IMG/VR virus record: IMGVR_UViG_3300006854_000004
Span: 1 to 64,000 of that record
Direction: 5' to 3' (one strand)
Length of the DNA stretch: 64,000 bases
DNA from: a virus
Shown: one piece after another, positions 12,148-40,757 of the stretch
Numbering within the stretch: the first letter of the stretch is position 1
Layout: every line of letters begins with the position of its first letter
The notes under the pieces: model-generated
The model's database searches: none
Told to the model about the DNA's origin: nothing
Seen by the model: the letters and a program-made list of their open reading frames with translations, nothing else
Position numbers and translations under genes: made by a program

Positions 12148-12158
12148 CCGCAAACTCG

Positions 12159-12734: not shown

Positions 12735-12738
12735 GACA

Positions 12739-13889: not shown

Positions 13890-13909
13890 GCGAACCGGCG
13901 ATCGGTGAG

Positions 13910-15372: not shown

Positions 15373-15546
15373 ACCGTTCAGCATACCCACTGAACCGGCC
15401 GACCGGGGATGATGTACGGGTACGACTGGGGTACGACTGGGATAGCGGAGCTGAGTGTCACGTAAACTCCCATGATAACACGTGATCAGATCCGCCATGG
15501 GATACGAGTGGGGTAGCTCTGAGGTAGCGGTGGGTTAGCGTCCGAC

Positions 15547-20748: not shown

Positions 20749-21071
20749 GGTGTATATCCCTTCTTGTCCATCGTTGCTTGGATCTGCGTCTGCTGCTCTG
20801 GCGTCAGCTCGAGCCTCAGGTAGCTGCTGACAGTCATCTCGTGATCCCAGAGCGACACGAGTCCGTCTGCATCGACTGTCAGATGCAGAATTCCCTGTCG
20901 CCACGTTGTGTCGGCCACCGACTCCTTCTCCCACCCAGCACGATAGAACGCCCACGCTTGAACGAGCGGGTCGTGGCCATACGACTTGTTCGACATGACC
21001 TTGACGAAGGACTTCCACGCTGGATGTCCGTCCTCCGGTGTCATGAGCGCTGCGATGTCCTTCGCCGTCAC
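20745..21071 (-). CDS. hypothetical protein
   Basis: GTGA overlap start at 21071. Confidence 0.5.
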   Translation of the reverse strand: MTAKDIAALMTPEDGHPAWKSFVKVMSNKSYGHDPLVQAWAFYRAGWEKESVADTTWRQGILHLTVDADGLVSLWDHEMTVSSYLRLELTPEQQTQIQATMDKKGYTP

Positions 21072-21451
21072 TGTCCGTATCCCCTCCATTTCTCGTAGCA
21101 CACTTGACCGCCGGAGCGGTCGATGATGCTGATCTCGACGTCCTTGCGGTCGGTGCCGCGCTTCGGACGCACCGAGACGACGAGGGTCTGGGTCGAGCTT
21201 CGCCAGAATGCCCAGGTGCCGAAGCTGGTCTGGACGACCTCGTCAGCGTGGGTTCCGCCGCGGTAGACCATACCGTCGTCGACGGTGAGGGTCGTGCGGG
21301 CGATGGCGAGGACGGTGTCCTTGAAGCCACGATCGCAGTGCGCTCCCGCGTGCTGAACGAACGCTCCGCTCTCCGGCATGACCCGGACGACGTCAGCGCT
21401 CGCTAGCAGCGGCAGCGACAGAAGGCTCGCTAGAATCATCAGCTTCCTCAT
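21068..21451 (-). CDS. secreted protein (Sec signal peptide)
   Basis: 'MRKLMILASLLSLPLLASA' signal peptide. GGGAGG lies 9 nt before the ATG. Confidence 0.55.
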   Translation of the reverse strand: MRKLMILASLLSLPLLASADVVRVMPESGAFVQHAGAHCDRGFKDTVLAIARTTLTVDDGMVYRGGTHADEVVQTSFGTWAFWRSSTQTLVVSVRPKRGTDRKDVEISIIDRSGGQVCYEKWRGYGQ

Positions 21452-24629: not shown

Positions 24630-25070
24630 TTAGAAGGGTCTGTCGATCTCGATGCCGGCCTCGGCGAGGATCAGCTTCGCGAACGCCGCGTCCTCTGACC
24701 ACGGTCGGCCGTCCTCCGGCAAAATCGGCGGAGGCGCGTAGACCTGAATGATGCCGGACTGCACGATCATCTTCGCGCACGCAGAGCACGGACTGAACGT
24801 GATGAACAGCGCGCACTCGTTGACCGGTCTCGGCGCGTTCAGGATGGCGTTCGCCTCCGCGTGCACGACCAGCGAGTACTTCGTCTGGCGATCCTCGTAG
24901 CGCTCCGGCGAGTCGCGCACGTGTCGAGGGAATCCGTTGTATCCTACGCTGACGACGCGACGTCTAGCGTCCGCGATGACGGCGCCGACCTTCGTCGACG
25001 GGTCCTTGCTCCACTGAGCGATGTGCTCCGCGAGCGTGTAGAATCGCTTCTGCCACTTCAGGTCGATCAC
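24630..25070 (-). CDS. dCMP deaminase
   Basis: 'VVHAEANAI' and 'PCSACAKMI' zinc-binding motifs of the cytidine/dCMP deaminase family. 146 aa. Confidence 0.8.
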   Translation of the reverse strand: MIDLKWQKRFYTLAEHIAQWSKDPSTKVGAVIADARRRVVSVGYNGFPRHVRDSPERYEDRQTKYSLVVHAEANAILNAPRPVNECALFITFSPCSACAKMIVQSGIIQVYAPPPILPEDGRPWSEDAAFAKLILAEAGIEIDRPF

Positions 25071-25360
25071 GTCGGCACCTCCGGATCACCGGTCACGATC
25101 ACTACGTCCTGCGCGTACAGACCCAGCTCCTTCCCTCTGGCGATGGCTGCTCCGAGGAACGCACCCAGGAACTTCAGTCGGTCGCTGTCACTGGACGCAG
25201 CGAACTGTCGACGGATCTCCGGTTCAGCCAGAAGCTCTGGTCGACAGCAGGAGAAGTCTGGACAGCACTCGCCGCCCTCGATGCCGTCTACCTCGCGATG
25301 GATCGACTCTCCGGCGACCCATCTCTTCAGCTGCTCGCCGCTACTGATTCTCTCGCTCAT
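25067..25360 (-). CDS. CC-x4-CC protein, paralogue A
   Basis: 'GECCPDFSCCRPELLAEPEIRRQFAA...DRLKFLGAFLGAAIA' is paralogous to the product of 45975-46304. ATG at 25360. Confidence 0.5.
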   Translation of the reverse strand: MSERISSGEQLKRWVAGESIHREVDGIEGGECCPDFSCCRPELLAEPEIRRQFAASSDSDRLKFLGAFLGAAIARGKELGLYAQDVVIVTGDPEVPT

Positions 25361-26390
25361 TTCTTCGCCTCCTCTCGAGCCACTCGGCGCAAGCTCGACG
25401 CCAGTCGCTCGCACGACAGTCGTACAGCGACGCGATCGCCGCGCCAGCATCGTTGTAGTCCTTGTAGATGTCATGCGCGCGCACGATCGGCCAGGCGACC
25501 TCGTTGAAGAACGGGTCTCGACAGTCCCGCGTTCCCGGTAGACGACCGTCGTGCGTGACGAAGTACCGGACGTCCTCGTCCCACGACTCGCGAGACGTCG
25601 ACATCAGAGGATACGGAGAGACCTCGTTGTTACGATACGGCTCCGTCGAGTACTCCTCGCCCAGAAGCATCTTGTCGTACATCTTGTCGTAGAGCGCCTG
25701 ATACGCGTGATAGTTCACGCTCACCTGAGTCAGCGAGCCGACCGGAAGCTCCGCACACCGGGCGATGTACTCGAGCAGAACGCTGAAGTGGACCGCGTTC
25801 GCACCGTGACACCCCCAGATCGCGTCGTTGCTCCGGCAGAACACGACCGCGTCCAGCGCGCCGACGACGCTCAGCTGGAACGTCACGACGAGATTGCAGG
25901 CGTGATCCTTGGTCTCCGTCGCCAGATCTCGATCGTGGTCCCACATCTGGAGAACGCACTGTCGCGTAGTCGGCTTCTTCCTCAGCTCCGCGATGATGTC
26001 GACGAGTTGGTCACGCTCTCCAGCGATCGGTCCTCCCCAATGCGGCGCGATGGTCGGTGCGCGTCGCCATCGGTGACCGTACGCCGCGTTCTGCGTGACG
26101 CCGTCGTCGCTGTACTCGCCCATCTGCTTCACGTAGCGCGTCAGCGGCGCGATGTCGTTGCGACCGACGAGCATCCAGAGCGACTCGTAGAAGTGGAAGA
26201 ACGGATTGGCATCCCGCCATCCGTAGAACAGGACACGCTCTCGCGGTCGCTCCATCACCGTCGCTACCGGCGTCGGATAGCGATAGGCCGGACCGTTGCG
26301 CGTATCCTCCAGGACGACGACGTCACCCTTCAGCCTGTAGAAGCCCTTCACCAGAGCCTCGGCCACGTTTCGAGCTTGTATCACTATCAC
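25341..26390 (-). CDS. thymidylate-synthase-fold enzyme (ThyA or dUMP hydroxymethylase)
   Basis: 'RDANPFFHFYESLWML', a catalytic-Cys-like 'DHACNLVVTFQ' and 'RSNDAIWGCHGAN' blocks occur in TS order. Confidence 0.7.
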   Translation of the reverse strand: MIVIQARNVAEALVKGFYRLKGDVVVLEDTRNGPAYRYPTPVATVMERPRERVLFYGWRDANPFFHFYESLWMLVGRNDIAPLTRYVKQMGEYSDDGVTQNAAYGHRWRRAPTIAPHWGGPIAGERDQLVDIIAELRKKPTTRQCVLQMWDHDRDLATETKDHACNLVVTFQLSVVGALDAVVFCRSNDAIWGCHGANAVHFSVLLEYIARCAELPVGSLTQVSVNYHAYQALYDKMYDKMLLGEEYSTEPYRNNEVSPYPLMSTSRESWDEDVRYFVTHDGRLPGTRDCRDPFFNEVAWPIVRAHDIYKDYNDAGAAIASLYDCRASDWRRACAEWLERRRRNERENQ

Positions 26391-27933: not shown

Positions 27934-29871
27934 TCAGTTCTCCACTTTGGTCAGTTCGCCCCAACTAGGACCTATCTCTAGGTCGACCTTCATGGGGACG
28001 TTGAAGGTCACCACCGTCATCTGAAGCTCCTTCAGCCTCTTCGCCTGCGAGAGCGAGGAGTAGCTGAAGTCAAACTCGTCGTGAACCGCCAGCTGGATCG
28101 GGATGCCCTCGGCGTCCGCCGCCACGAGCGTAGCCTTCATCTGGTCGGCTGCCGATCCCTGGCCGATGCGGTTGAAAGCCTTGTGGGCCTTCCAGATCTT
28201 GTTGTCCGGTCCGCGCTCGAAGTGGCACTTCCGCTTGAGGTACGTCCAGACGAAGCCGTTCTTCTCGGCCTGCTTCGCCGCAGCCTTCGTCAGACCGCGG
28301 ACCCACGGGGCGAACCTCGTGAAGCCGTCGATCTTCTCCTGCGACTCTGGGGTCGGCATCTCGCGCATTCCCCACTTCGTCTTCCGGATCTCCGTCGGCC
28401 AGTTCATGTGATGGCAGAGGAGAACGTCGCCCATCCCGTAGAGGCGACCGTTGACGAAGTTCTTCACCGTCGTGCGGTCGTAGTTGACGGGGTCGTTCGC
28501 GATGTCGGTCAGCTTCTGGTGGATGTCCAGAGCCGGGTTGTTCCTGTATTCGTCGGCGAAGGCGGACGCGCCGGGACACTCACGACCGCCGGAGATCTTC
28601 TCGATGATCTCGGCGTAGTGGACGCCGATGCGAGGCTCCTGCTGAGCCCAGTCGCTGCACGCCCATCCCTCGGCTCCCTCGTCAGCCTCGTAGATCGAGC
28701 GCCATCGCTTCCCGTACTCCTTGTTCCTGACCGGCTGAAACTGCATGTTGTCGTTCGAGGACGACAGTCGCCCGAAGCGTACACCCTTCTCCTCGCCACC
28801 GTCGTCGGTCGCCTTCAGCTGGTTGAACGTGCAGTGCATCCGTCCTTTGACGGAGTACTCGCGCACTCGCGAGCAGAACGTCGTGCGCACCTTGTTCCAC
28901 TCGCGTGCGCGAAGGATCCACTTGCCGACCTCGCCGGCCTCCTTCAGCAGGACCTTGTCGACGGACGCCTTGCCCTGCGACGTCTTGCTCGGCTCGACTC
29001 CGAAGCGGCGGAGCGCGTGCGCGAGGACCTCGGCCTTCCAGACGTTCCCGACGCCGATGTCGACGCCGGTCGCGTGCTTGACCTTCGCCAGCTCCTCGGT
29101 CTCGATCCTGATGGAGTCCCTCTCGATGGAGTCCACACGATCGAAGTTTACGCGAACGCCGCGACGTCGCATCTTCACGAGGATCGGTGTCACCTTCTGC
29201 TCGAGACCCCAGATCTCGAGGACGCCCTCCTTCTCGGCTGCGATCTCCTGACGACGCAGGAGTTGGAGCGATCGTCGCGCGTCTGCGCGACCGTACGCCT
29301 CGACGAAGCGAGCCGGCAGCTTCCATAGATCGACCTTCGGGTCGTAGCCGTACGCGGATGCAGCCTGACGGAGGACCGTCTCGTCCTTGCCCGGGAGTCC
29401 GTGACGCTCGCACATCGAGTCGAGGTCGTAGTTGAAGTGAAGCTCGTTGATGAGGACGTCCAGGACCTGAGGGTCCATGATCGGCTTCGTCAGGATCGCC
29501 TCGTCCTCGACAGTGGTCGCGATCCAGTCGAGATCGTATCCGATGCCGTTGTTGACTATCGTACCTCTGAAGTCGCGGATCTGGTCCCGCAGATAGCGGA
29601 TCGCACCATCTGGGTCAGCCACGTTGTCGCCGCCCTCGTGGCGTATCGGGACATAGAACTCCGGACCGTCCTCTATGGCGACGCTGTATCCGCAGACGTA
29701 GTTGGTCCGCGGATCCCGACGACACCCCGGGCCGAGACGCTTCAGCTGCTCGTCGCGACACTCGACGTCGATCGCGACCCGCTTCGCATCGCCCCACGAC
29801 GGAAGCTCGCTGACGATCGGTGGCGCCCAGACGACCGTCGGCAGAGCGAAGGAGAAGATCGTCTGCGACAT
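27934..29871 (-). CDS. family A DNA polymerase
   Basis: Motif A 'CSDWAQQEPRI', motif B 'RTTVKNFVNGRLYGMG' and motif C 'LAVHDEFDF'. ATG 29871 forms a TGATG overlap with the upstream stop. An alternative GTG lies at 29889. Confidence 0.85.
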   Translation of the reverse strand: MSQTIFSFALPTVVWAPPIVSELPSWGDAKRVAIDVECRDEQLKRLGPGCRRDPRTNYVCGYSVAIEDGPEFYVPIRHEGGDNVADPDGAIRYLRDQIRDFRGTIVNNGIGYDLDWIATTVEDEAILTKPIMDPQVLDVLINELHFNYDLDSMCERHGLPGKDETVLRQAASAYGYDPKVDLWKLPARFVEAYGRADARRSLQLLRRQEIAAEKEGVLEIWGLEQKVTPILVKMRRRGVRVNFDRVDSIERDSIRIETEELAKVKHATGVDIGVGNVWKAEVLAHALRRFGVEPSKTSQGKASVDKVLLKEAGEVGKWILRAREWNKVRTTFCSRVREYSVKGRMHCTFNQLKATDDGGEEKGVRFGRLSSSNDNMQFQPVRNKEYGKRWRSIYEADEGAEGWACSDWAQQEPRIGVHYAEIIEKISGGRECPGASAFADEYRNNPALDIHQKLTDIANDPVNYDRTTVKNFVNGRLYGMGDVLLCHHMNWPTEIRKTKWGMREMPTPESQEKIDGFTRFAPWVRGLTKAAAKQAEKNGFVWTYLKRKCHFERGPDNKIWKAHKAFNRIGQGSAADQMKATLVAADAEGIPIQLAVHDEFDFSYSSLSQAKRLKELQMTVVTFNVPMKVDLEIGPSWGELTKVEN

Positions 29872-30089
29872 CAGTTCAGGCGACTCCACACAGCGAGGAG
29901 TGTCACCACATCACAGGAGTAGTCCCGACCGTTGTCGAGAACACCGACGACGTTGCGCCCGCGTGACGCCTTCGGGTCGACATGCTTGACCGTCAGCTTT
30001 CGGTTCCCCTTCTGGTCGATCAGCACCTCGCCGACGCTCGGCCAGTCGGTGAACGGTTTGTCCTTCTCAGACTTGAAGGGCGGCATCAT
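29871..30089 (-). CDS. hypothetical protein
   Basis: 4-nt overlap with the upstream gene. Confidence 0.45.
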   Translation of the reverse strand: MMPPFKSEKDKPFTDWPSVGEVLIDQKGNRKLTVKHVDPKASRGRNVVGVLDNGRDYSCDVVTLLAVWSRLN

Positions 30090-30721
30090 CGCGCCCTATT
30101 CGCTGGCTGTGTCAGACCCCTCGAGACGCGCGGCTCCCAGTCATGAGCGTCAGCACCCAGACCTGAGTGAACGCCGCTCTGTGGGGACTGACCGCACTTC
30201 CCGCAGTAGTCCGTCGTCTTCGCGTCCATGAACTCGACGCTGCTGACCGTCTTCGGCTCGATGTCCTCGTCCGCCGTGTATCCGCTTCCGCCGGTCCCGC
30301 GATGCCCGACGTACGTGGAGAGCGCTCCGCCGAGTGTATCGCCCATCATACTCTTGACCGACTCGGCAGCTTCGACGGCGCTCTCCTTCAACTTCGGAGT
30401 CAGCGCGTTAGACAGACCGTGCTCATCGCACCGTGTCCTGACCTCCGCCTCGATCAGGTCGAGATAGCAGCGCAGATCGCGAACGGTGTCTATGAGGGAC
30501 TCGCCCGCGGACTCGTCCAGGAGCGCTCGGAAGATGTCGTAGCCGTATCGCTTCGCGATCTCCTCGATGCGGTCGACCTTGCGGATCATGACCATGTACG
30601 CGCCGACACCGCCGCGCTTCTTCCAAGACGCATTGTACGCCTTCTCCTTCTCGGTGACCAGTTCGACGTCCTCCTGCGCGATGCGCGGGATCAGTGCGAG
30701 ATGCCTCAGGTTGTCTGTCAC
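30086..30721 (-). CDS. MazG-like / DUF1599 (Nmad1)-like all-alpha NTP pyrophosphatase candidate
   Basis: 'YNASWKKRGGVGAYMVMIRKVDRIEEI' resembles the DUF1599 core. The C-terminal region contains 'CGKCG'. Confidence 0.45.
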   Translation of the reverse strand: MTDNLRHLALIPRIAQEDVELVTEKEKAYNASWKKRGGVGAYMVMIRKVDRIEEIAKRYGYDIFRALLDESAGESLIDTVRDLRCYLDLIEAEVRTRCDEHGLSNALTPKLKESAVEAAESVKSMMGDTLGGALSTYVGHRGTGGSGYTADEDIEPKTVSSVEFMDAKTTDYCGKCGQSPQSGVHSGLGADAHDWEPRVSRGLTQPANRAR

Positions 30722-31299
30722 GGTAGCCAGCTCCTACGCCCACCCAGATGGTGGATGCTCGGGAATTCTCGCCACGACCGGACGGTGATTCCGTCCTCCC
30801 AGTCGTCGACGATGTTATGTTCGGCCTCGTACTTAATGGCGACGCCGTGCGGATGACTCTTCTTCCACCTGACTAGGTGCTCGACGCGATCGTCCACGAA
30901 GACGTCGCCAGCACAGACGTGCTTCGCGGAGCAGTGGATGACGCTCTTCCAGTCAGCGCCGAAGTGCTCGATGAGCCAGAGCGTTCGCTCGTGCGTCCAG
31001 TTCGGGCTCTTCATCGGAGACGTGACGAAGTAGACTTCGGACGTCTGTCGGAGTCTGGCGACTCCCTCTACCGCGCCCGGGAGCGGGTCGAGGGACAGAC
31101 ACCATCCTGGTCTCTGCATCTCGGCGTAGACCCGCGTCTCGACGTCCTCTGGGACGCCGAGCGACTTGAAGACGTGCCACGACTTGATGTCGGCCTTCTT
31201 CTTGTCCCACCCGGTCATCTCGTTGATGATCTGGATGCACGGTGTGAGGAAGTCCGCCAGGACCCCGTCGACATCCAGCAGCACGCGCGGTCTAGTCAC
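30718..31299 (-). CDS. HAD-family 5'(3')-deoxyribonucleotidase (NT5C-like)
   Basis: 'VLLDVDGVLADF' DxDxV nucleophile motif. ~190 aa, typical of phage NT5C proteins. Confidence 0.65.
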   Translation of the reverse strand: MTRPRVLLDVDGVLADFLTPCIQIINEMTGWDKKKADIKSWHVFKSLGVPEDVETRVYAEMQRPGWCLSLDPLPGAVEGVARLRQTSEVYFVTSPMKSPNWTHERTLWLIEHFGADWKSVIHCSAKHVCAGDVFVDDRVEHLVRWKKSHPHGVAIKYEAEHNIVDDWEDGITVRSWREFPSIHHLGGRRSWLP

Positions 31300-31526
31300 A
31301 CTAGACCCTCTTTCTCGACAGCACTCATGATGATCTCCGTCGCGTTCGCGTCAGCTCTCCATCGACTGCCGTCCGGTAGTCCGACGATGCTGCCGGACTC
31401 CTTGACCGCGTCCAGCTGAACGGTACGAACGAACACGATGTTCTGGATGTTCAGTGTCACTAGCTGCAGATCGCACCAGTTCAGTCTGTTCTCGTCCCAC
31501 TCCTGCATCGGTACTCGCACGAACAT
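31296..31526 (-). CDS. hypothetical protein
   Basis: 4-nt overlap. Confidence 0.45.
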   Translation of the reverse strand: MFVRVPMQEWDENRLNWCDLQLVTLNIQNIVFVRTVQLDAVKESGSIVGLPDGSRWRADANATEIIMSAVEKEGLV

Positions 31527-31529
31527 CGT

Positions 31530-31748
31530 TCACCAGTGAAACGCGTACCAGCGATCAGCGCCGGTCGCGAGCGAAGTGTTGTAGATGGTAGAGATGATGA
31601 GGTCTCCGCACCTGATGTCCTCGTCGAACAGAACCAGCTTCGCGAGCTTCTCGGCGATGCGGACTCCGTGCTTCGTCTTCACGGCGACGATGCGTCGCTC
31701 CCATAGGATGCTGGTCGCTGTTGATAGTTCTCGAACCATGTCGTCCAT
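31530..31748 (-). CDS. hypothetical protein
   Basis: AAGGAGAG lies before ATG 31748. First ORF after the promoter at 31817-31846. Confidence 0.5.
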   Translation of the reverse strand: MDDMVRELSTATSILWERRIVAVKTKHGVRIAEKLAKLVLFDEDIRCGDLIISTIYNTSLATGADRWYAFHW

Positions 31749-31816
31749 TCAGCGCTCTCCTTGGTTTCTGTCGGTCACATTCCGCCAGAGACAGCTAAGC
31801 GTGATCTTAACGCGGC

Positions 31817-31846
31817 ACCATAACACAGGCTAGGTTACAGATGCAA
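31817..31846 (-). promoter_or_regulatory. promoter candidate, TTGCAT-N13-TGTGTTA class
   Basis: On the - strand: TCTTGCAT-ctgtaacctagcc-TGTGTTATGGT. Same architecture as 50705-50734 and 41462-41491. Confidence 0.4.
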
Positions 31847-31850
31847 GACT

Positions 31851-32405
31851 TCAGCGGTAGTCTTCCTCGATCGGTCCCTCTGGTCGCTGGACGCCGAGCA
31901 GTTCGCAGACGCAGTCCATCGCGCGTTGTCTGTCGGAGACCATCTCGATGCCGATGCCCAGCTCGCGCATCGCCATGACCGTCCTCATGATCTTGTACTC
32001 ATACTCATCGCGCGTCCCCGCGCCGATGCTCTTGCCGAGTCGCGGGACCGGCATCCCGTCGACGTTGATGTAGACCGTCCTGCACGTCTTCGCGAACTCC
32101 GGACCGTATCCGGCCCACAGACGCTCCCACTTCGTGAAGCCGCCCTCCATCACGCCGGACTTCGGAGACTCGGAGGCTCGACGCATGATCTCGTCGAAGC
32201 CGAACGGGTCGCGATCGTACGCGGTCATGCCGTGCCTCATCCTAGACGTCGTCTCGTAGTTTCCGTAGACGATCAGATCCGGCGACTCGTAGTACATCGG
32301 CAGCGGACTGGTCCCGTAGATCTTCCGCCACGTCCGCGCCTTCATGAGGCGCCGAACGAGCGTGCTCTTACCAGAGCCGTACGGTCCGAGGACGACGACG
32401 TTCAC
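31851..32405 (-). CDS. P-loop kinase/NTPase, paralogue 1
   Basis: GTGA overlap start at 32405. Walker A 'GPYGSGKSTLVRRL'. Shares 'G.YET' and 'EGG/EGI' blocks with 32752-33363. Confidence 0.6.
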   Translation of the reverse strand: MNVVVLGPYGSGKSTLVRRLMKARTWRKIYGTSPLPMYYESPDLIVYGNYETTSRMRHGMTAYDRDPFGFDEIMRRASESPKSGVMEGGFTKWERLWAGYGPEFAKTCRTVYINVDGMPVPRLGKSIGAGTRDEYEYKIMRTVMAMRELGIGIEMVSDRQRAMDCVCELLGVQRPEGPIEEDYR

Positions 32406-32755
32406 GACAGCCAGGCCCTGTCGCAGTCGCCCGTCATGTCGCACCCCCCGCAGACTCGGAGTCGCTTACCGTCGCGCGAGATCTCCATTATCGCCTGTCG
32501 ACGACACGGCACCTCGTGACGGTCACACTGACACGGTCCGACGAAGCGCGTGTCGTCCGGCTTCCTCGCGACGAAGGCTCGCGTCATCTTCGCGAGCATC
32601 CCGCTGGTCGTGTAGACGAACACGAACGGGAAGAAGCCGTGCACGAGGCAGATCGCGCCAGCGAGGAACATGCGACCACTGAACACCAGCGAGTGTCCGA
32701 GATGCTCGGCGTAGGACTCGCCCATCTCGCGAGGATGCTTCGTGAAGAGACTCAC
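32402..32755 (-). CDS. membrane protein with Cys-rich C-terminus
   Basis: Hydrophobic 'FLAGAICLVHGFFPFVFVYTT', then 'CQCDRHEVPC...VCGGCDMTGDC'. Confidence 0.5.
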   Translation of the reverse strand: MSLFTKHPREMGESYAEHLGHSLVFSGRMFLAGAICLVHGFFPFVFVYTTSGMLAKMTRAFVARKPDDTRFVGPCQCDRHEVPCRRQAIMEISRDGKRLRVCGGCDMTGDCDRAWLS

Positions 32756-33363
32756 GGTCGCTCTCCGATGCCGCGCTCGATGTCGTGCGGTGAGACGACA
32801 GGATCGAGCGGCACCGACAGAAGCTCGCAGACCTTCATGAACGCCGCATCGCGATCGAGCCTGAGGACCGGATAGCCGTTGTCCTCGATGCGCCGTCCGG
32901 AGCTGAGCACGCTCTTGTACTCCTTCCGAACGTTCTCCCCCTCGAACGGAGCCGTGTCACCCCGGGCGATGCGACGCGCGCGGACCGAGTCCACGCAGTC
33001 CTCCATCGGCGTAGACAGCTGAACGACGATGGTCGAGTGGTCCCGCATGATCTCGAGCAGCTTCGTCGTGTTGTGCTGAGCGACGATGCCCTCGAACAGG
33101 ACGTCGAGCTTTGCCTCTGCCGCCTGACGAACCATGTCGTAGATGGTGGACGCGTCGGTGATGGTATCGCATCCGCCCGTCGGCGTCTCGTACGCGCCGG
33201 GGATCAGGAGAGTATCGACACCGTCACGGTGACTGCGACAGCGATAGCCCATGGGTCGCTGACGGCGCGAGACGTAGAACGGCTCGCTCTCGTGCAGGTC
33301 GAGGACTCGCTTGACGAGCGTTGACTTACCGGAGCCGTTGGCTCCACGAACGTTGATGATCAT
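32752..33363 (-). CDS. P-loop kinase/NTPase, paralogue 2
   Basis: ATGA overlap start at 33363. Walker A 'GANGSGKSTLVKRV'. The N-terminal track extension was discarded. Confidence 0.6.
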   Translation of the reverse strand: MIINVRGANGSGKSTLVKRVLDLHESEPFYVSRRQRPMGYRCRSHRDGVDTLLIPGAYETPTGGCDTITDASTIYDMVRQAAEAKLDVLFEGIVAQHNTTKLLEIMRDHSTIVVQLSTPMEDCVDSVRARRIARGDTAPFEGENVRKEYKSVLSSGRRIEDNGYPVLRLDRDAAFMKVCELLSVPLDPVVSPHDIERGIGERP

Positions 33364-34112
33364 CTCTCGGCTCTCCTGATGTTCGACAGAAACTCGAATG
33401 TAGATCTGCGCATGGTCGCCCGACCCGGGAGGACGTTGCTCCACAGCATCGGCTTGGTGAACAGGTGGAACGGTCGCAGGATGAAGACGGGCGGTCTGCG
33501 TCCGTGCAGCTCGTACTCGATGTCCCGCCACCACTTCGGGACGACTCCCGGCTGCGACCCAGGACTCTTCTCGTAGAACTCGAGCGACCGCGTGTGTCCG
33601 AGCGGAGGGATGAAGTAGTTGTGGTCGTACTTCTGCTCGTCCGTCAGATCGTCGATCGGCGAGTAGATGTCGCCGCGTGGATTGCCATCGCCGGACGCAG
33701 CCTTCGCCTCGTAGACCCGCCTGTCGATGTCATAGATGCGGCGACCGAGATCGTAGTTCGAGCGGAAGACCTCGTCGACCCTACCGGCGAACAGGACTGT
33801 GTTCGACGCGAGATGAGCGGGGCACAGACCGACGAGCCACGTCCCCTTCCAGTCGTACGCGTAACTCCGCATCATGTGCTTGCACGTCGCGAAGGTCGCC
33901 AGACCGCCGTCCCAGTTCGGGCTCGAGCGCGTGTGCTTGATGACGCCGCCCTCGAGGAAGATCTCGTGCTGCGTGTAGAGTTGGAGCGGTCCCTGATACG
34001 ACCCCATGTCGGAGACGAGTCGGTCGGGGTCGTTCAGAACCACGCTCCTGTCCCAGTCCCAGTCGTGGTGTTGATAGCCGTCCGGCAGATCCAGTGATCG
34101 TGACACCGTCAT
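33360..34112 (-). CDS. nucleotide-modification-associated domain 2 (Nmad2)-like protein, tentative
   Basis: 'SSPNWDGGLATFATCKHMMR' resembles the 'APNP..G..TLA.CKP.IR' signature I recall for Nmad2. GGGAGG lies before the ATG. Confidence 0.4.
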   Translation of the reverse strand: MTVSRSLDLPDGYQHHDWDWDRSVVLNDPDRLVSDMGSYQGPLQLYTQHEIFLEGGVIKHTRSSPNWDGGLATFATCKHMMRSYAYDWKGTWLVGLCPAHLASNTVLFAGRVDEVFRSNYDLGRRIYDIDRRVYEAKAASGDGNPRGDIYSPIDDLTDEQKYDHNYFIPPLGHTRSLEFYEKSPGSQPGVVPKWWRDIEYELHGRRPPVFILRPFHLFTKPMLWSNVLPGRATMRRSTFEFLSNIRRAER

Positions 34113-34250
34113 CGCGAACCTCCCGCCGGCCGGCCGGCGCGCCAGCGGGCGCGGGCGCGCGTTGTGGCTGCACAGCTTGCCCTGTGTGTGGCGTTTGCGG
34201 CAAGCGCGCAGCTGTGCAGGGGTGGCGCGCCCGCGCGTGTAGCGCGCACC
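34113..34250 (-). repeat. intergenic repeat element, copy C
   Basis: On the + strand: ACCTCCCGCCGGCCGGCCGG (34118-34137), GGCTGCACAGCTTGCCCTG (34167-34185) and GGCGCGCCCGC (34223-34233). An imperfect long hairpin runs CTGCACAGCTTGCC...GGCAAG(cgcgc)AGCTGTGCAG (34168-34219). Confidence 0.8.
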
Positions 34251-35141
34251 CTACGCCCCTCGCTCCGTGATCGAGTCCCGCGTCGGGTGGAAGAGCCGCT
34301 TCGGCCTGCGACCCTCAGCGACGCGCGAGTACTTATCGAACTCGCACAGCTGGAACTGGACGTCGGTCAGGTCGAGCTTCGGCAGATGGTAGGTCAGGTC
34401 CTGACCTGGATCGAGTCTGTCGCTCTCCGCGATCTCGTCCGGCCAGTGCTCGTCTCGCACGGAGTAGATCTCGCGGATGACGTCCAGAGCCTCGCTCTCA
34501 CCGATCTGCGTGTTGATACCGTACCGAACGCGAGCCGCTCCACGCTTCCCACCCGGGCCGACCGGCGTCCAGGTCGACCAGTCCGTCGGCAGACGACCCG
34601 TCGCGAGCACGAAGTCTAGATAGACCTCCTTCGCCATGAAGGAGCCGAAGCCGTAGCACTCGGTCATCTCGCGTATCGCACCCTCCCACGTGTGATACTC
34701 CAGGATCTTGTCGATGCGGCTCCAGAGCGAGTCGATAAACTCGCAGACGACCGAGTACTTCGCGTCGCTGCGTCCGGCCGAGGTGACGATGTACGCGGCC
34801 GTGAAGCTCAGCCCGGGGCCGAGGCGATAGACGTGGTCGCGACCGTGCTCCCAATCCTCGACCCATCCCATCACCTTCGCGCTGTGCACCGTCCCGAAGA
34901 AGCGATAGAGCGCGCAGTTCAGCAGCTTGATGCGGTCCGACGCGTCCTGATGCTGATCGTAGATGCGCTTGAACTCGATCGTCGTGCGATCGTCGTGCCG
35001 CTTGACGTTCGTGAAGCTGAACAGCTTGAAGATCGGGTCGTTCGTCCACAGCGACTGTGGTAGACCAGAAGCTCGACGCTGACGGATCAGCTCCCGCTCG
35101 ATCATGAAATCGTAGAACTGCTTGACCCTGGTTATCGTCAT
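34251..35141 (-). CDS. alpha-glutamyl/putrescinyl-thymine pyrophosphorylase (aGPT-PPlase)-like protein, tentative
   Basis: The N-terminus 'FMIERELIRQRRASGLPQSLWTNDPIFKLFSFTNVKRHDDRTT' and a later 'LCEFDKYSR' resemble my recollection of the family. Not verified by search. Confidence 0.4.
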   Translation of the reverse strand: MTITRVKQFYDFMIERELIRQRRASGLPQSLWTNDPIFKLFSFTNVKRHDDRTTIEFKRIYDQHQDASDRIKLLNCALYRFFGTVHSAKVMGWVEDWEHGRDHVYRLGPGLSFTAAYIVTSAGRSDAKYSVVCEFIDSLWSRIDKILEYHTWEGAIREMTECYGFGSFMAKEVYLDFVLATGRLPTDWSTWTPVGPGGKRGAARVRYGINTQIGESEALDVIREIYSVRDEHWPDEIAESDRLDPGQDLTYHLPKLDLTDVQFQLCEFDKYSRVAEGRRPKRLFHPTRDSITERGA

Positions 35142-35509
35142 GAATTTCTCCGGATGTAATCGCGCATGGATCTACACTCGCGGCATCCGAACTTACTATC
35201 AAAGTCGCTCTTCTTATGGCCGCGAGGACAGTGCGTAAAGCTCATTCCTGTCTGATTCAGTCGTTGCTCTTCCCTGGTCGCCCAGCGAACATTCCCTGGT
35301 TCATAATTACCGTTGCTGTCGATGCGATCGAGCGTCATACCGTCTGGTCTGTCTCCAACATCTCGAAGAAAATCATCGAACGAATGCAGCCAGCGGTCGC
35401 AGACCGTGACGCCACGACCTCCGTAATACTGATAAGACTTATGTTGGTCGTTATAGCATCGCTGTATCATCTGATACCAACTCATCCTCATCAACTGTCT
35501 CGAAGCCAT
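35138..35509 (-). CDS. HNH homing endonuclease
   Basis: 'YYGGRGVTVCDRW...LDRIDSNGNYEPGNVRWATREEQRLN' is a classic phage HNH pattern. Visibly AT-richer than its flanks. Its stop overlaps the next start (ATGA). Confidence 0.8.
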   Translation of the reverse strand: MASRQLMRMSWYQMIQRCYNDQHKSYQYYGGRGVTVCDRWLHSFDDFLRDVGDRPDGMTLDRIDSNGNYEPGNVRWATREEQRLNQTGMSFTHCPRGHKKSDFDSKFGCRECRSMRDYIRRNS

Positions 35510-35511
35510 TT

Positions 35512-36297
35512 CTACGGAGTCCTAATCAAACCTGCTGTCCATCGGACGTATCGCCCGGCGAGCAGCTGGTTCTCCGGCTCGTTGTACAGACGGTTCAGGC
35601 CAGACGGATGCGGGATCCAGCCGACCACGATGGACGCGTCGCCGTAGAAGATCGTACACCATCCGAACTTCTCGCGGCTCTTGATGCCCCACGCTCGCTG
35701 AACCTTCGCCCCGAGCAGCAGGACGCGGAGATCGGTCCGATGCTTCATCAGCGCGATCTTCAGCAGCTGGACCCGAAGCTCGGCGATCTCACTGTCCCAG
35801 ATCGTGGGACACAGGTTCGTGCGCAGCATCCGGGTCATGAAGTCCCACGGCTCCATGTTCGAGTAGCCCAGGAGCCTCGCAGCTGCGGAGATCTCCGGAT
35901 GCGGAAACATCGGCAGACGCGGATCGGTCGAGTCACCCGGGCACTCCCCGACGATCAGGCCGACTGGTGTCGGCAGCTCCTTCATCGGATAACCGAGCAA
36001 GCTCGACCCCATCCTCACCGACGTGATGTGCGGATACTTCGGGCCGGCGTCTTTTGAGACGAGGGGAATAGATCCGGCCGTTCGATCTTCAGCCACACTC
36101 GGCATCTCCAGCACGTGAGGAGACTCGCTCTGGACACGATCTCGCTCGGCGGCACTATCTCGTCGCAGATCGTCCAGAAGTCCGGCGTCGGCGCGAGCCG
36201 GTCCGGGTCCCTCCAGTGCTTCTTGTACGTCTTCGGCATCCCTCGCCTCCAGTCGCACCTTGCTGAGCGCGATCTGCATCTGGTTGAACTTCGTCAT
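35512..36297 (-). CDS. uracil-DNA-glycosylase-superfamily protein with N-terminal extension
   Basis: 'LIVGECPGD' (motif A-like) and 'WIPHPSGLN' (motif B-like). ATGA overlap start at 36297. The track ORF extends spuriously to 36534. Confidence 0.5.
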   Translation of the reverse strand: MTKFNQMQIALSKVRLEARDAEDVQEALEGPGPARADAGLLDDLRRDSAAERDRVQSESPHVLEMPSVAEDRTAGSIPLVSKDAGPKYPHITSVRMGSSLLGYPMKELPTPVGLIVGECPGDSTDPRLPMFPHPEISAAARLLGYSNMEPWDFMTRMLRTNLCPTIWDSEIAELRVQLLKIALMKHRTDLRVLLLGAKVQRAWGIKSREKFGWCTIFYGDASIVVGWIPHPSGLNRLYNEPENQLLAGRYVRWTAGLIRTP

Positions 36298-36566
36298 CGC
36301 TGACACCCGACGGTCCTCTCGTCCACGACGATCGGGTGTGTCCCGCCAGTGCAGTAGATCGCCATCGCGTAGCGACGCTCCTCGTAGACGCAGGCCATCT
36401 GCTCCTTCGCCGTCCCCGCCGCGTCTCCGCATCCGTGAGGCGGAGCGTAGACGCACGTCGTGATGCCGTTCGGCCGGACGCCCTCCACGTACCATCCCGG
36501 TAGACACTGCGCGCGATCCGGCGGCGTCGCGCACGCGGCGATGAAGAGCAAGAGCGCTTTGATCAT
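36294..36566 (-). CDS. Cys-rich lipoprotein
   Basis: 'MIKALLLFIAAC' signal peptide plus lipobox. 7 further Cys in the mature part. Confidence 0.6.
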   Translation of the reverse strand: MIKALLLFIAACATPPDRAQCLPGWYVEGVRPNGITTCVYAPPHGCGDAAGTAKEQMACVYEERRYAMAIYCTGGTHPIVVDERTVGCQR

Positions 36567-37837
36567 ACGACCACCGTCAACTTCCTAGCAGCGCGCGTGA
36601 TGCCCGTGTAGAGCCATCGGCGACCGACCTCTCTTCCGAACGCGCTGCTCTCGTCGAAGAGGACGACGCTGTCCCACTGACTGCCCTGACTCTTGTGGAC
36701 CGTCAGAGCGTACGAGTAGTCGAACTCCGCTAGGTTCTTGCGGTCCCACCCGAGCGTCTGAAGCTCGTCCTCGAGACCGACCATGTGGTGCAGCCACGAC
36801 TCGACGCACAGACTGCCGATGCCATCCTCTGAGTCGATCTCCAGATTGCACGTTCGAGTGTTGATGTCGCTGGACGCTGCGGCGACTCGCCACATGGAGC
36901 CGTTGAACAGACCGAGCGATCGATCGTTCTTCAGGCAGACGAGGCGATCGCCTCGCACCGGAGTCATCTCGGTCATGCCCAGGAGGGCGCGCTGACGCTG
37001 GTTGAACGCGCGTCGCGTTCGGTTCCGTCCGACGAGGACCTGATCCGCGGTCATAACGATGCCGGCTAGCTCGTCCCGGCTGAAGTCCTCCTTGAACAGG
37101 ACGCGACAGTCCTCGGTCCCCTGGAAGTGAGCAGCCGTGTGACCCTCACGGACCAGCGTAGCGAGACGCAGGATACCCGACTCGTTCGCCTGACGGTGGA
37201 TCTCCGTCAGCATGACGTCCGGCGTCCGCTTCGTGTATCGTCCTCCAGCTCCGACTGGAGGGAGCTGAGCGGGATCGCCGACCACGAGGATCTTCTTGCC
37301 GAACGACTCCAGGTCCTCGCCGAGGCGGTCGTCGACCATCGAGCACTCGTCGATGACGATGCCCTCGACGTCCGGGTCAGCGAGCGGACTGTTGACCCAC
37401 AGAGCGTACTGAGGCTCGCGCTCGTTGATGAGGGTCAGCAGCTTCTTCTCGATGCTGGCGACCATATCGACGGCCTCGCGCGATGGCGTCCTGCTGTCGT
37501 CGAGCATGGTCTCATCGCGCACCATCTTGCGAGCGGTGTCGAGCTTCTGCTCGAGCGCCGCTATCTCGGTCGCCCTGGACTCACCGTTCGGTCTGTAGAT
37601 GAGACTGTGGATCGTGCGCGCGCCCTCGCAACCCTTCTGACGCATCACGTGAGCAGCCTTGCCCGTGAACGAGGCGAAGAGCCATCGACGACACGCGTTC
37701 TTCACGAGGTGCTTGATCAGCGTGGTCTTACCAACGCCCGCGTATCCGCCCAGGTAGAAGACCTGAGGAGCGGACTTATCGAACATCCACGCGCTCGCGC
37801 TCTTCAGCGCGGCCTCCTGCTGAGGTGGAAATTTCAT
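36563..37837 (-). CDS. RecD/Dda-like SF1 DNA helicase
   Basis: Walker A 'GGYAGVGKTTL' and Walker B 'IVIDECSMVD'. C-terminal 'YALTVHKSQGSQWD' and 'YTGITRA' motifs. Confidence 0.8.
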   Translation of the reverse strand: MKFPPQQEAALKSASAWMFDKSAPQVFYLGGYAGVGKTTLIKHLVKNACRRWLFASFTGKAAHVMRQKGCEGARTIHSLIYRPNGESRATEIAALEQKLDTARKMVRDETMLDDSRTPSREAVDMVASIEKKLLTLINEREPQYALWVNSPLADPDVEGIVIDECSMVDDRLGEDLESFGKKILVVGDPAQLPPVGAGGRYTKRTPDVMLTEIHRQANESGILRLATLVREGHTAAHFQGTEDCRVLFKEDFSRDELAGIVMTADQVLVGRNRTRRAFNQRQRALLGMTEMTPVRGDRLVCLKNDRSLGLFNGSMWRVAAASSDINTRTCNLEIDSEDGIGSLCVESWLHHMVGLEDELQTLGWDRKNLAEFDYSYALTVHKSQGSQWDSVVLFDESSAFGREVGRRWLYTGITRAARKLTVVV

Positions 37838-37840
37838 CGG

Positions 37841-37939
37841 TGCCTCGCCAAGGACTCGAACCCTGTGACCTGCTCTTCTTCAGTCGCAACACTTCAGGAG
37901 GGGTATCCGGTAGAGCAGGGTCCCTACGACGAACGAGGC
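37841..37939 (-). ncRNA. tRNA-like element (acceptor stem + canonical T-arm), not a canonical cloverleaf by hand folding
   Basis: On the - strand: GCCTCGT...CAGGG-TTCGAGT-CCTTG-GCGAGGC-A. This gives a 7-bp acceptor pairing and a 5-bp T-stem with a TTCGAGT loop. The ends are 99 nt apart and I found no 5-bp/7-nt anticodon arm. Confidence 0.3.
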
Positions 37940-37944
37940 ATAGG

Positions 37945-38041
37945 CCGACTTGGTTGAAGTGCTCAAGTCGGAACGCACTGGATCCTCATCGCCATGGAGG
38001 ATCAGCATGGGTCCGCTTCAGCCTCCGGGGTGGGTGGAGGC
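37945..38041 (-). other. three consecutive stem-loops in the SSB-helicase intergenic gap
   Basis: CCGACTTG/CAAGTCGG (37945-37971), GATCCTC/GAGGATC (37981-38003) and GCCTCC/GGAGGC (38021-38041). Confidence 0.4.
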
Positions 38042-38054
38042 GAGCTGGACCACT

Positions 38055-38897
38055 TCAGAACGGAACGTCGCCCTCCTTCTTGGTCTCGCCCTCCGGACGG
38101 GTCTGGTTGTAGTCGATCTTCGACTCGAGCGCTCCGCTGTCGACCTGCACCATCATCTCCTTCGCCATCATGAAGCGCTCGTCCGTGCGCGGGAGGAGCG
38201 ACTGCGTGATGCCGCGCGGATCGCCGCTGGTGATCACCGGAACGGCGAATTCACCCTCGGTGTTCCTCGTCATGGTGGACTTGATGCGGGTCAGGTGCGC
38301 GTAGAGCGGAGGGCGAACGCGCTTGCCCTGAGCGTCGAGGATCAGCGCCTGACGGAGGCGCGTCATCCAACCCTTGTACGGACGGATCTTGGTCGACGTG
38401 AATGGGATGAGCGCCATCGAGTCGGCCTGACCGTCCTCGGTGCACAGGACGCCGAACACGTAGAACGTCTCGGCCAGCTCGTTCTCACCGACGTAGTACT
38501 CGCCGAACTTCAGGTCCGGGTCCTTCTTCGCCTCGGCGATCGCGTTCAGCACGATCGGGTCCTCAGGCTTGAACTGACCGCGGTATCCGCCGCCCTTATC
38601 GCGCGGGACCCACTCCACGAACACGTGTCGCGTCAGACACGGGACGAACAGGAACCCCTCGTCGGCGGGCCAGATCTGCTCGGTGACGGTGTTGTACCAG
38701 TCACCAGGGTTCGCCTTCCTCGCCTTCACCATCGGACTCAGGTCCTGGAGCAGGTTGATGATGGGAATGCGAACGTCGGCGGACGTCTGACCCTGATAGC
38801 CCTGACCGGCGTCGTCGCCATAGTCGGGAGCGACGACCATCGACGCGTCCTGCTTCTTCTCGAGAGCGGTATCCTCAGCAGCCTTCTTCGTTGCCAT
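38055..38897 (-). CDS. ssDNA-binding protein candidate
   Basis: 280 aa lying between helicase and recombination-like genes. The C-terminal tail ends '...KKEGDVPF', resembling the SSB acidic tip (D-[IV]-P-F). No OB-fold motif was recognised by eye. Confidence 0.4.
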   Translation of the reverse strand: MATKKAAEDTALEKKQDASMVVAPDYGDDAGQGYQGQTSADVRIPIINLLQDLSPMVKARKANPGDWYNTVTEQIWPADEGFLFVPCLTRHVFVEWVPRDKGGGYRGQFKPEDPIVLNAIAEAKKDPDLKFGEYYVGENELAETFYVFGVLCTEDGQADSMALIPFTSTKIRPYKGWMTRLRQALILDAQGKRVRPPLYAHLTRIKSTMTRNTEGEFAVPVITSGDPRGITQSLLPRTDERFMMAKEMMVQVDSGALESKIDYNQTRPEGETKKEGDVPF

Positions 38898-39705: not shown

Positions 39706-40020
39706 CTAGAAGGGAGCGGGTCCACACCCGCAAGTCGGTTTCTTGTCGTCAGGATGCTCGTGTCCGCACCACGCGAGCGACGTCTTGTCGATGAGCCTCC
39801 TGATGACATACGGGATGCGCGCCTGACCCTGAGCGACCAGATCGATGCCCTGCTTGATCTCCGAGAGAGCGGCACGAAAGTCCTTGTCGTGATACGGCGG
39901 ACCATCGTCCATCCTCTGAAGGTCACGTCGGGCGACATCGAGCGCGTGGATGGCGATGTGGATGCTGGCGAACACAGCCTCCATCGCTCGCAGCGTTCCG
40001 TGACGATTGTCGTCCCTCAC
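39706..40020 (-). CDS. hypothetical protein
   Basis: GTGA overlap start. Confidence 0.5.
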   Translation of the reverse strand: MRDDNRHGTLRAMEAVFASIHIAIHALDVARRDLQRMDDGPPYHDKDFRAALSEIKQGIDLVAQGQARIPYVIRRLIDKTSLAWCGHEHPDDKKPTCGCGPAPF

Positions 40021-40757
40021 TTGCCCCTCTTGATTCTCGCGAACGACTGAACGAATGCGCCGAAGTCTCCTAGCGGAACGTTCGCGCCCTCGCGCAGCTT
40101 CCCGCGCAGATACGCGAGCAGCGTCTGATGGTTGATGGACCAGTCCTCCGCGACCGCCGCGTGCTCCTCAACTCCAGCGTCCCTGAGCATCTGGCGGAAC
40201 TTGTCCGCCCACTCGATGCTGTCGCGACCGTAGCGGATCTCGAAAGCTCGCTTGATGAGACCGTCGTCGCCGTTCTCCTCGAGATACTTGAAGGCGCGCT
40301 CCCGCTTCGACTCGTCCTTCGGGAAGGACGCGCGGACCTCCTCCTTCAGCTCGACGGTGATGCCGCCCTTCGTGCGATAAAGGTCGGTCCCGACCTCGGC
40401 CATCACCGCGGGGATGAGATCCTCCTGGTACGATCGAAGCTGCTTCTGCAGCACTTCGAGCTTCTCCTCCAACTCCTCCTTCTCGATCTCGATCTTGCCC
40501 ATCTCGACGACGAGACGGTTCAGCCGCTTCATCAGGTCCTCCGACGCCGGCTGAGGCTCATCGGTGTAGTCGGGGACCGACGGTGCATCGCGCAGACGAC
40601 CGCCCCGCTCGCGAAGCGCGCGCTGGAAGCCCTTGTCCTCCTCCGGTTGGAGCATCCCGCCGCGGGCGAGCGACGCGAGCAGACCCCTCCACTCGTCGTC
40701 GCCCATCGACATGAACGCCGCGTACGCATCGTCAGCGTTGTTCCTCGGGTCAGGCAT
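40017..40757 (-). CDS. coiled-coil protein, hypothetical (recombination-module position)
   Basis: 246 aa with a central 'EIEKEELEEKLEVLQKQLRSYQEDL' coiled coil. Confidence 0.55.
   Translation of the reverse strand: MPDPRNNADDAYAAFMSMGDDEWRGLLASLARGGMLQPEEDKGFQRALRERGGRLRDAPSVPDYTDEPQPASEDLMKRLNRLVVEMGKIEIEKEELEEKLEVLQKQLRSYQEDLIPAVMAEVGTDLYRTKGGITVELKEEVRASFPKDESKRERAFKYLEENGDDGLIKRAFEIRYGRDSIEWADKFRQMLRDAGVEEHAAVAEDWSINHQTLLAYLRGKLREGANVPLGDFGAFVQSFARIKRGK

Follow-up and report, generated by a model that had tools for sequence, protein, structure and literature searches.

All reconstituted pathways for thymidine hypermodifications derived from 5-hydroxymethyl-2'-deoxyuridine (5-hmdU), namely those of phages M6, ViI, PaMx11, PhiW-14 and 15599, use the same type of enzyme after the kinase step: 5-phosphomethyl-2'-deoxyuridine (5-PmdU) in DNA is consumed by an amino-acid/diamine:DNA transferase (AADT, aGPT-Pplase2), the active site of which combines a metal and a thiolate in the motif E-T-x-x-C (PMC8989533, PMC11472151, PMC13458397). 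Further thymidine-modifying activities have been predicted to await discovery (Lee et al. 2021). Here we describe a gene set on a 64,000-nt stretch of viral DNA (positions 1 to 64,000 of IMG/VR record IMGVR_UViG_3300006854_000004, hereafter the window), which belongs to a phage contig of 68,463 bp assembled from metagenomic data. On balance, we read the region as a 5-hmdU/5-PmdU thymidine-hypermodification pathway in which the final step is taken by a previously unrecognised enzyme family, represented by a Nmad2-like protein of 250 amino acids (aa) that is referred to as X. A preliminary description of this DNA had inferred a thymine-replacement and post-replicative hypermodification set that matches no described pathway, and the computational analysis bears this out. 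The genes on which the argument depends are listed below, with the HMUDK_hel protein abbreviated to hel.

24630..25070, minus strand: dCMP deaminase, expected to supply dUMP (Pfam dCMP_cyt_deam_1, 3.1e-20; HAE and PCxxC zinc motifs)
25341..26390, minus strand: thymidylate synthase (TS) homolog, predicted dUMP 5-hydroxymethylase (Pfam Thymidylat_synt, 3.9e-19; phrog_5131, 2.9e-104)
27934..29889, minus strand: family-A DNA polymerase, which would incorporate 5-hmdUTP (45% identical to PaMx11 gp55, E 7e-164)
30718..31299, minus strand: NT5C-family 5'(3')-deoxyribonucleotidase, candidate dTMPase (Pfam NT5C, 5.9e-21; DxDGV motif)
32752..33363, minus strand: kinase 1, homolog of the 5-hmdU DNA kinase (5-HMUDK) (Pfam HMUDK_HMUD1, 3.6e-6; phrog_800, 2.6e-18)
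33360..34112, minus strand: X, proposed 5-PmdU-consuming enzyme in the place of AADT (kinase adjacency, invariant residues, relationship to Nmad2)
34251..35141, minus strand: HMUDK_hel, a clade-1 'aGPT-Pplase' paralog (Pfam HMUDK_hel, PF18723, 1.5e-28)

The cluster of Pseudomonas phage PaMx11, which makes 5-acetylaminomethyl-2'-deoxyuridine (5-AcNmdU), comprises gp46 (AADT), gp47 (FAD lyase), gp48 (acetyltransferase), gp49 (5-HMUDK), gp50 (HMUDK_hel), gp51 (TS homolog) and gp52 (HD nucleotidase) (PMC8989533, PMC11472151). The window has the same kinase/hel/TS core: kinase 1 shares 38% identity with gp49 (E 3e-38), the activity of which is proven biochemically, hel 28% with gp50, and the TS homolog 41% with gp51. 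The likeness extends to the polymerase (45%), the dCMP deaminase (46%, gp56), the helicase (42%) and the primase (42%), and with 28-46% identity throughout, the relationship between the two modules is a distant one. On the other hand, tblastn with gp46, gp47 and gp48 gave nothing in the window with E below 0.5, only chance-level fragments, and the window carries X, a DUF6356 protein, a second kinase and a uracil-DNA glycosylase (UDG)-fold gene instead; NT5C replaces the HD nucleotidase, and the virion genes are of myovirus type. The cluster of Pseudomonas phage M6 for 5-(2-aminoethyl)-2'-deoxyuridine (5-NedU) holds gp51 (AADT), gp52 (pyridoxal phosphate (PLP) enzyme), gp53 (radical S-adenosylmethionine (radical-SAM) enzyme), gp54 (kinase), gp55 (hel) and gp58 (TS homolog). 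The TS homolog of the window is 45% identical to gp58 over the full length (E 1e-98), hel is homologous to gp55, and kinase 1 is 24% identical to the proven gp54 (E 1e-6) and has homologs across ViI-like phages; unlike M6, the window has X and is devoid of AADT, PLP and radical-SAM genes. For both 5-AcNmdU and 5-NedU, reconstitution with purified enzymes has been achieved (PMC8989533).

Bacillus phage SP10 carries alpha-glutamylthymidine and encodes a kinase-hel fusion (gp186) and a second kinase (gp218), with Pplase2 undetected (PMC5889632, Table 3). The window resembles SP10 in its two paralogous kinases and an HMUDK_hel domain without AADT/Pplase2, hel being homologous to the C-terminal half of gp186 (186C); SP10 differs in having a radical-SAM gene, kinase and hel fused, and no X homolog. 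In look, the X-type module resembles the one-step AADT/DADT design of PhiW-14 (putrescinyl-T) and Acinetobacter phage 15599 (dapT), where a kinase is joined by a single 5-PmdU-consuming enzyme with no tailoring (PMC13458397). However, the consuming enzyme of these phages is a metal-dependent HhH-type Pplase2 with the ETxxC motif, to which X is unrelated in sequence and predicted fold. A TS-homolog/HMUDK_hel pairing beside PolA, as in the window, is also found in uncultured HTVC023P-type pelagiphages, reported in 2022; in the passages of that paper that were searched, TS and 'aG/PT-PPlase1' are named as partners, and a kinase-adjacent X or a lack of AADT goes unmentioned there (PMC9599517). Two X-type loci from TARA samples, L019 and L022, may be of this pelagiphage kind. 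Although the virion genes of the window are of myovirus type, its replication and modification module is similar to those of PaMx11 and M6, which are siphoviruses, and thus the module is shared across morphotypes.

Genomic context is the main evidence on X. In every independent locus with that flank X adjoins the P-loop kinase, the exception being L006, where the kinase did not score and an unassigned 238-aa open reading frame (ORF) occupies its position beside X. The two genes frequently overlap at stop and start. In the window, most neighbouring genes of the region share 4-nt stop/start overlaps, and 33360-34112, 32752-33363, 32402-32755 and 31851-32405 form a single translationally coupled unit. 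Nine further independent loci (L005, L006, L009, L010, L012, L015, L019, L022 and the P0004 contig; 41-61% GC) harbour the genes for hel and the TS homolog at a distance of up to ~7 kb from X, usually beside a family-A polymerase. In loci that are shorter or truncated, the set is preserved in part, as hel, kinase and X (L007, L011) or as kinase and X (L017, L018, L020). Soil, sediment, freshwater and TARA ocean samples yielded the X-type loci, which overall range from 41 to 65% GC. Pfam analysis of seven loci displays HMUDK_hel in all seven, and HMUDK_HMUD1 (best 1.5e-14), TS and PolA in six each. Since no gene stands between X and the TS homolog or hel in L006 and L022, the minimal conserved set consists of hel, kinase, X and TS homolog. 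AADT was never found in the X-type loci examined; X and AADT are mutually exclusive and hel is common to both cluster types, which is the pattern expected if X and AADT share a role.

Two further gene types were observed in these loci. A conserved family of ~190-215 aa lies directly downstream of the TS homolog in L009 (13340-13957), L010 (12572-13138) and L012 (10104-10754); its members are 39-42% identical to one another, have no homolog in the window, and may represent another module component. In the TARA ocean locus L019, a 243-aa ORF (7830-8561) separates the TS homolog from an ORF homologous to the 211-aa protein described below. By elimination from the family totals, this ORF is the likely source of the sulfotransferase matches (Pfam Sulphotransf, 3e-12) and could provide a tailoring activity.

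The absence of AADT was probed in several ways. A hidden Markov model built from six AADT seeds (PaMx11, M6, PhiW-14, and Rhizobium, Rhodoferax and Rhodococcus phages) and run without filters (--max) gave a best E of 3.4 in the window, and over the window and all related loci no match fell below E 0.49. The Pfam ADDT profile (PF18724), for which the positive control scored 1.6e-27, matched none of the ~87 ORFs of the window and none of the 99 ORFs of the seven X-type loci. It had been noted from the first reading of the sequence that PLP, radical-SAM and glycosyltransferase partners are lacking, and this holds across the ~87 window ORFs, among which FAD-lyase and acetyltransferase partners are missing as well; PLP, radical-SAM, FAD, acetyltransferase and glycosyltransferase families likewise are without Pfam match among the 99 ORFs of the related loci. 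Known clusters thus combine AADT and tailoring enzymes with kinase, hel and TS, and the clusters described here combine X with kinase, hel and TS. Hence the simplest reading is that X consumes 5-PmdU. As the group-transfer enzyme is missing and X stands in its place, the DNA probably carries an undescribed modified thymine.

Homologs of X form 62 clusters at 90% identity, all of them metagenomic and none with a Pfam annotation, and a profile search with X retrieved 400 representatives at 50% identity. The Nmad names are reportedly due to Iyer et al. 2013. The assignment of X to Nmad2 (PF18753) in the preliminary description stands at the level of the family relationship only: X itself scores 16.3 bits (E 0.0073; profile positions 13-68 of 200, ~55 residues aligned) and stays below the gathering cut-off of 26.1 bits, while Nmad2 is matched by 22 of 43 relatives of X (E<=0.1) and by all ten remote relatives, five of which exceed the cut-off, with nearly nothing else matched. 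The core shared by X and Nmad2 is N-terminal and includes the SSPNWxGG...TCKH region. Because its relatives match Nmad2 consistently, we regard X as a divergent Nmad2 branch and not as a strict member. Domain fusions among the relatives of X involve DUF6508 only.

The alignment of X displays 30 invariant positions, among them H49, R62, C77-K78-H79, R82, R146, D148, K193, R196, D197 and E199. The AlphaFold2 (AF2) model of X is confident, with a predicted local distance difference test score (pLDDT) of 90.6 and a predicted template modelling (TM) score of 0.89. Judged from the Cys-Lys-His motif, the many invariant Arg and Lys residues and the confident globular model, X looks like an enzyme. The invariant Cys beside Lys and His would suit an AADT-type chemistry via a C6-thiolate and an exocyclic methylene, by analogy and not by homology. 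A Foldseek comparison of the model, which had been proposed as a check, did not match any entry in PDB or BFVD at E<0.1 (best E 0.45 and 0.19). Non-significant matches to PUA-like, ASCH and ATP-sulfurylase-N folds recur in this comparison and were not relied upon. Sequence and profile searches of PDB with X, hel, the 211-aa protein and the UDG-fold protein gave nothing meaningful; matches to LacI, p53-like proteins and cytoglobin were judged to be chance. Among 185,579 species genomes, X was found only on one phage contig binned into a Dehalococcoidia metagenome-assembled genome, and the scan therefore gives no clue to the host. No papers naming X or Nmad2 in the context of thymidine hypermodification were found.

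HMUDK_hel is the second conserved component of the module. The protein of the window matches the profile with 100.4 bits (cut-off 25) over positions 4-276 of 281, and has homologs in PaMx11 gp50, M6 gp55, SP10 186C and proteins of ViI-like phages. Tonitrus gp8, also considered as a homolog, was dropped on account of a poor alignment. To our knowledge, HMUDK_hel has been described only alongside 5-hmdU DNA kinases. In Lee et al. 2018 it figures as the second of the 'aG/PT-PPlase' paralog classes (PMC5889632, Table 3). The product of 34251-35141, likened to aGPT-PPlase family members in the preliminary description, is thus of the clade-1 type and not the catalytic AADT/aGPT-Pplase2. Residues C266, E267 and K270, within the motif LCEFDKY, are invariant in 12 homologs, and Cys266 aligns with the catalytic Cys of AADT (ETxxC) via (E/Q)xxLCEFDKY (hhalign E 0.0014); the catalytic role of this Cys in AADT has been demonstrated (PMC13458397, PMC11472151). 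Two types of motif occur in hel, E-H-(S/T)-L-C in PaMx11 and M6, and Q-x-x-(L/F)-C in the window and in L006, L010, L011, L013 and L022; the latter type has Gln in place of the Glu that aligns with the metal-binding Glu of AADT. Being the constant partner of the kinase in AADT-type and X-type clusters, hel likely serves all such phages alike. It is a matter of speculation that its task, common to all 5-HMUDK phages, may be the handling of 5-hmdU or 5-PmdU left un-hypermodified. The analysis sharpens the question of the role of HMUDK_hel, which always accompanies the kinase and has kept this Cys.

The enzymes that would act on the side of dUMP are better defined. The dCMP deaminase and the TS-fold enzyme recognised in the preliminary description are both borne out by Pfam (3e-20 and 3.9e-19). 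In the TS homolog the catalytic Cys is retained within HACNL, and the residue equivalent to E. coli N177 is the uracil-specifying Asn (ANAVHF), whereas the CMP hydroxymethylase MilA has Asp there. With the Cys kept and Asn in place of the Asp of MilA, the enzyme is expected to act on dUMP at the pyrimidine C5; an identity as dCMP hydroxymethylase was rejected on account of this Asn. As sequence cannot separate hydroxymethylase from methylase activity, the hydroxymethylase call rests on orthology. No further TS or ThyX is present in the window. The HAD-type deoxyribonucleotidase anticipated at 30718-31299 proved to be a clear NT5C member (75.6 bits at a cut-off of 24.8, profile positions 3-169 of 180, LLDVDGV motif). 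A YfbR-like HD 5'-deoxynucleotidase, non-homologous to NT5C, adjoins the TS homolog in PaMx11, M6 and L022, and this exchange is consistent with a dTMP-draining role that analogous enzymes would fill. In Pfam and homology scans, no dTTPase, dUTPase, MazG or HD protein was identified among the window proteins. Kinase 1 reaches 27.1 bits with the HMUDK_HMUD1 profile (cut-off 27), and the biochemically proven PaMx11 gp49 scores lower (18.1 bits); judging by its homologies, kinase 1 is to be placed as a bona fide member of the 5-hmdU DNA kinase family.

Based on this dataset, we hypothesize the following pathway. The dCMP deaminase would provide dUMP, as its family suggests, and the TS homolog would convert dUMP to 5-hmdUMP, as indicated by its orthology to M6 gp58 and PaMx11 gp51 and by the retained Cys and Asn. 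NT5C would drain dTMP, and the family-A polymerase of the phage would build 5-hmdU DNA. Kinase 1, in view of its homology to proven kinases, would then phosphorylate 5-hmdU in the DNA to 5-PmdU. In a replacement of one gene module by another, X would take the place of AADT and turn 5-PmdU into a hypermodified thymine, possibly via Cys77-Lys78-His79. The front end of this scheme, dUMP hydroxymethylation followed by a DNA kinase, is that of established pathways, and what would be new is a back-end enzyme family without structural match. It is possible, and we propose it tentatively, that X is the founding member of a new class of enzymes modifying DNA nucleobases, that its fold differs from all solved structures, and that it acts on 5-PmdU in polymeric DNA and installs a hypermodification not seen before. 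If so, X-type clusters would mark a second, AADT-independent branch of hypermodification in soil, sediment and ocean phages. The retention of the kinase/hel/TS core with AADT swapped for an unrelated protein points to new DNA-base chemistry and probably to a new natural base, which is of relevance for the resistance of phages to restriction and glycosylase defences, for sequencing bias in viromes, and for enzymatic DNA-labelling tools.

Several observations weigh against this interpretation. A tblastn search of 50,697 deposited phage genomes did not find X, and the family has no member in a cultured phage; nor did the PDB and BFVD searches provide a structural or sequence precedent for its catalysis. 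Canonical Nmad2 proteins, two of which have an informative context, adjoin Nmad3 (L008, 617-2129) or SIR2_2-like and HATPase_c_3-like genes (L029, 481-5067). The Nmad2 superfamily therefore is not confined to the 5-hmdU pathway, and its other branches seem to be part of systems of another kind, which may be conflict systems. Kinase 1 only just reaches its Pfam cut-off, and the search for AADT covers the window, with ~4.4 kb of the contig (68.4 kb) lying outside. The hel of the window has a Gln (QFQLCEFDKY) where AADT has the metal-binding Glu. Finally, SP10 makes glutamyl-thymidine with a kinase and hel and no detected Pplase2 (PMC5889632, Table 3), so that hel could be the transferase and X something else.

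This last point leads to the main rival explanation, which we consider rather unlikely: hel would be the group transferase on 5-PmdU, and X a tailoring enzyme, a specificity or donor factor, or a converter of leftover 5-hmdU/5-PmdU to thymine. Besides the kinase-hel fusion of SP10, the invariant Cys aligned with the catalytic Cys of AADT in the (E/Q)xxLC motif and the presence of hel in every X locus with that flank speak in its favour. However, the hel homolog M6 gp55 was dispensable in lysate reconstitution, and of the five ViI lysates in the sufficient mix, which contained gp160, gp247 alone was reported as necessary (PMC8989533). Moreover, it is X and not hel that is mutually exclusive with AADT, and the Gln in place of the metal-binding Glu also argues against hel as transferase. 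The pathway may instead end at 5-hmdU, 5-PmdU or T, with X travelling with the kinase as a reader or binder of modified DNA or as an anti-defence protein. The tight and often translational coupling of X to the kinase in diverse phages, the invariant Cys-Lys-His and the many invariant polar residues typical of catalysis make this improbable, and PADLOC has no match for X; in addition, known 5-HMUDK phages always process 5-PmdU further (PMC8989533). The recurrence of PUA-like/ASCH-type 'reader' folds among the weak, non-significant Foldseek matches and the conflict-system-like position of canonical Nmad2 beside SIR2- and HATPase-type genes would fit such a role. Very improbable, in our view, is plain nucleotide salvage, with an ordinary thymidylate synthase and P-loop nucleotide kinases. 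The residues examined do not separate TS from dUMP hydroxymethylase, and the score of kinase 1 is borderline, which leaves room for this explanation, but kinase, hel and TS homolog are all homologous to proteins of phages with proven 5-hmdU-derived bases, the HMUDK_hel match is strong (100 bits), and a dTMP-degrading NT5C beside a true thymidylate synthase would be futile.

The reading of X as the 5-PmdU-consuming enzyme leaves five further genes of the region to be described.

30086..30721, minus strand: 211-aa protein with a conserved N-terminal domain of ~95 aa (15 homolog clusters, covering the N-terminal domain only)
31851..32405, minus strand: kinase 2, second P-loop kinase (Walker A GPYGSGKST; paralog of kinase 1)
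32402..32755, minus strand: DUF6356 protein, hydrophobic at its N-terminus and Cys-rich at its C-terminus (Pfam DUF6356, 7.1e-23)
35138..35509, minus strand: HNH endonuclease (phrog_3377, 9.9e-37), between the UDG-fold gene and hel, with a 4-nt overlap with hel
35512..36297, minus strand: UDG-superfamily fold protein with a disordered N-terminal extension (AF2 and Foldseek; GExPG and HPSG motifs)

The two P-loop kinases had been taken for paralogs, and indeed kinase 2 is 25% identical to kinase 1 over the full length (197 aligned columns, E 6e-6). Kinase 2 has no tblastn match in deposited phages and is also found in the close relative L020. It may either act on DNA, like the second kinases of ViI and SP10, or phosphorylate 5-hmdUMP. 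The membrane/Cys-rich protein between the two kinases is a DUF6356 protein (7e-23). DUF6356 genes adjoin the kinase or X in L009 (9766-9993), L018 (319-543), L020 (842-1051) and the P0004 contig, and recur in about one third of the loci, among them unrelated X-type loci; the Cys-rich C-terminus is reported for the copy in the window. The putative DNA-modification operon thereby includes a membrane-like protein. L020 has a homolog of the 211-aa protein downstream of NT5C, and in L019 a homolog follows the TS homolog at a distance of ~0.9 kb. The proposal of a MazG/DUF1599-like pyrophosphatase for this gene had to be rejected: 15 family members are without Pfam match at E<=1, the PDB profile search was likewise negative, and hhalign against MazG proteins of related loci gave E 0.66.

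For the protein of 35512-36297, the UDG-superfamily assignment is confirmed by structure (Foldseek E 6e-6) together with conserved motifs. The AF2 model has pLDDT values of mostly 83-96 for residues ~110-261 and of <50 for residues 15-85, i.e., the C-terminal ~150 residues are confident and the N-terminal ~85 aa are predicted to be disordered. Foldseek retrieved TDG, MUG, UdgX and family-4 UDG (E 6e-6 to 1e-3, probability 1.0, target TM ~0.6), and the GExPG and HPSG motifs are conserved in eight homologs; the Pfam UDG profile did not detect the protein. With only eight homolog clusters, it is lineage-specific and lies outside the conserved module. The most plausible role of the protein would be uracil repair, in a phage with an enlarged dUMP pool and no dUTPase seen in the window. 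The neighbouring HNH gene is present in all three near-identical contigs and was missed by the gene caller in two of them; in L005, another HNH gene lies between hel and kinase. HNH is probably a mobile insertion outside the pathway and looks like a homing element that targets the module.

As to the general layout, the window has 63% GC, and its source contig was recovered at 99.9% identity in three other assemblies. A minus-strand block of replication and nucleotide-metabolism genes at ~14-50.5 kb is flanked on both sides by plus-strand virion genes (1-14000 and 51000-64000) of myovirus type, including tail sheath, baseplate J and V, a Mu-F-like protein and terminase. All ORFs listed in the preliminary description are present at their coordinates on the minus strand, with a coding-type GC content at third codon positions (0.74-0.86), every peptide motif quoted there is found in the translations, and an independent gene caller set the same boundaries on near-identical sister contigs. 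At the DNA level, comparison of the region with 50,697 phage records gave short helicase and HNH matches only, and PADLOC has no defence-system match for any of the module proteins. A scan for promoters and terminators (29800-38200) remained at chance level, and the stretch of 138 nt that separates hel from X shows no folding beyond that of shuffled sequence (z -0.37).

Some minor observations concern the remainder of the window. A response-regulator receiver domain is encoded at 15028-15498 on the minus strand (Pfam Response_reg, 3e-7, slightly over the cut-off), and a Pfam scan that does not name the ORF gave an exonuclease VII small subunit match (5.4e-9) in one of the ORFs covered. Within the ORF 20557-21330, the 257-aa protein of which has no Pfam match, an imperfect short-period repeat of the GAG/GAC type (20566-20697, minus strand) encodes a long acidic run of Glu and Asp. 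A direct repeat of 139 nt (76% identical) occurs at 25140-25278 and 46057-46195, 21 kb apart; one copy lies in the small ORF 25067-25474, which separates the genes for the TS homolog and the dCMP deaminase, and the other in an ORF near 45975-46487, the two being probably paralogous small genes. An ATP-dependent DNA ligase is encoded at 18607-19656 on the minus strand (Pfam DNA_ligase_A_M, 1.5e-19). Homologs of cyanophage Pam3 gp34 and gp33 are found at 38055-38897 and 40017-40757 on the minus strand (Pfam 2.5e-46 and 8e-22); PaMx11 gp41 and gp40 are further homologs, and the position of these genes upstream of the helicase is conserved.

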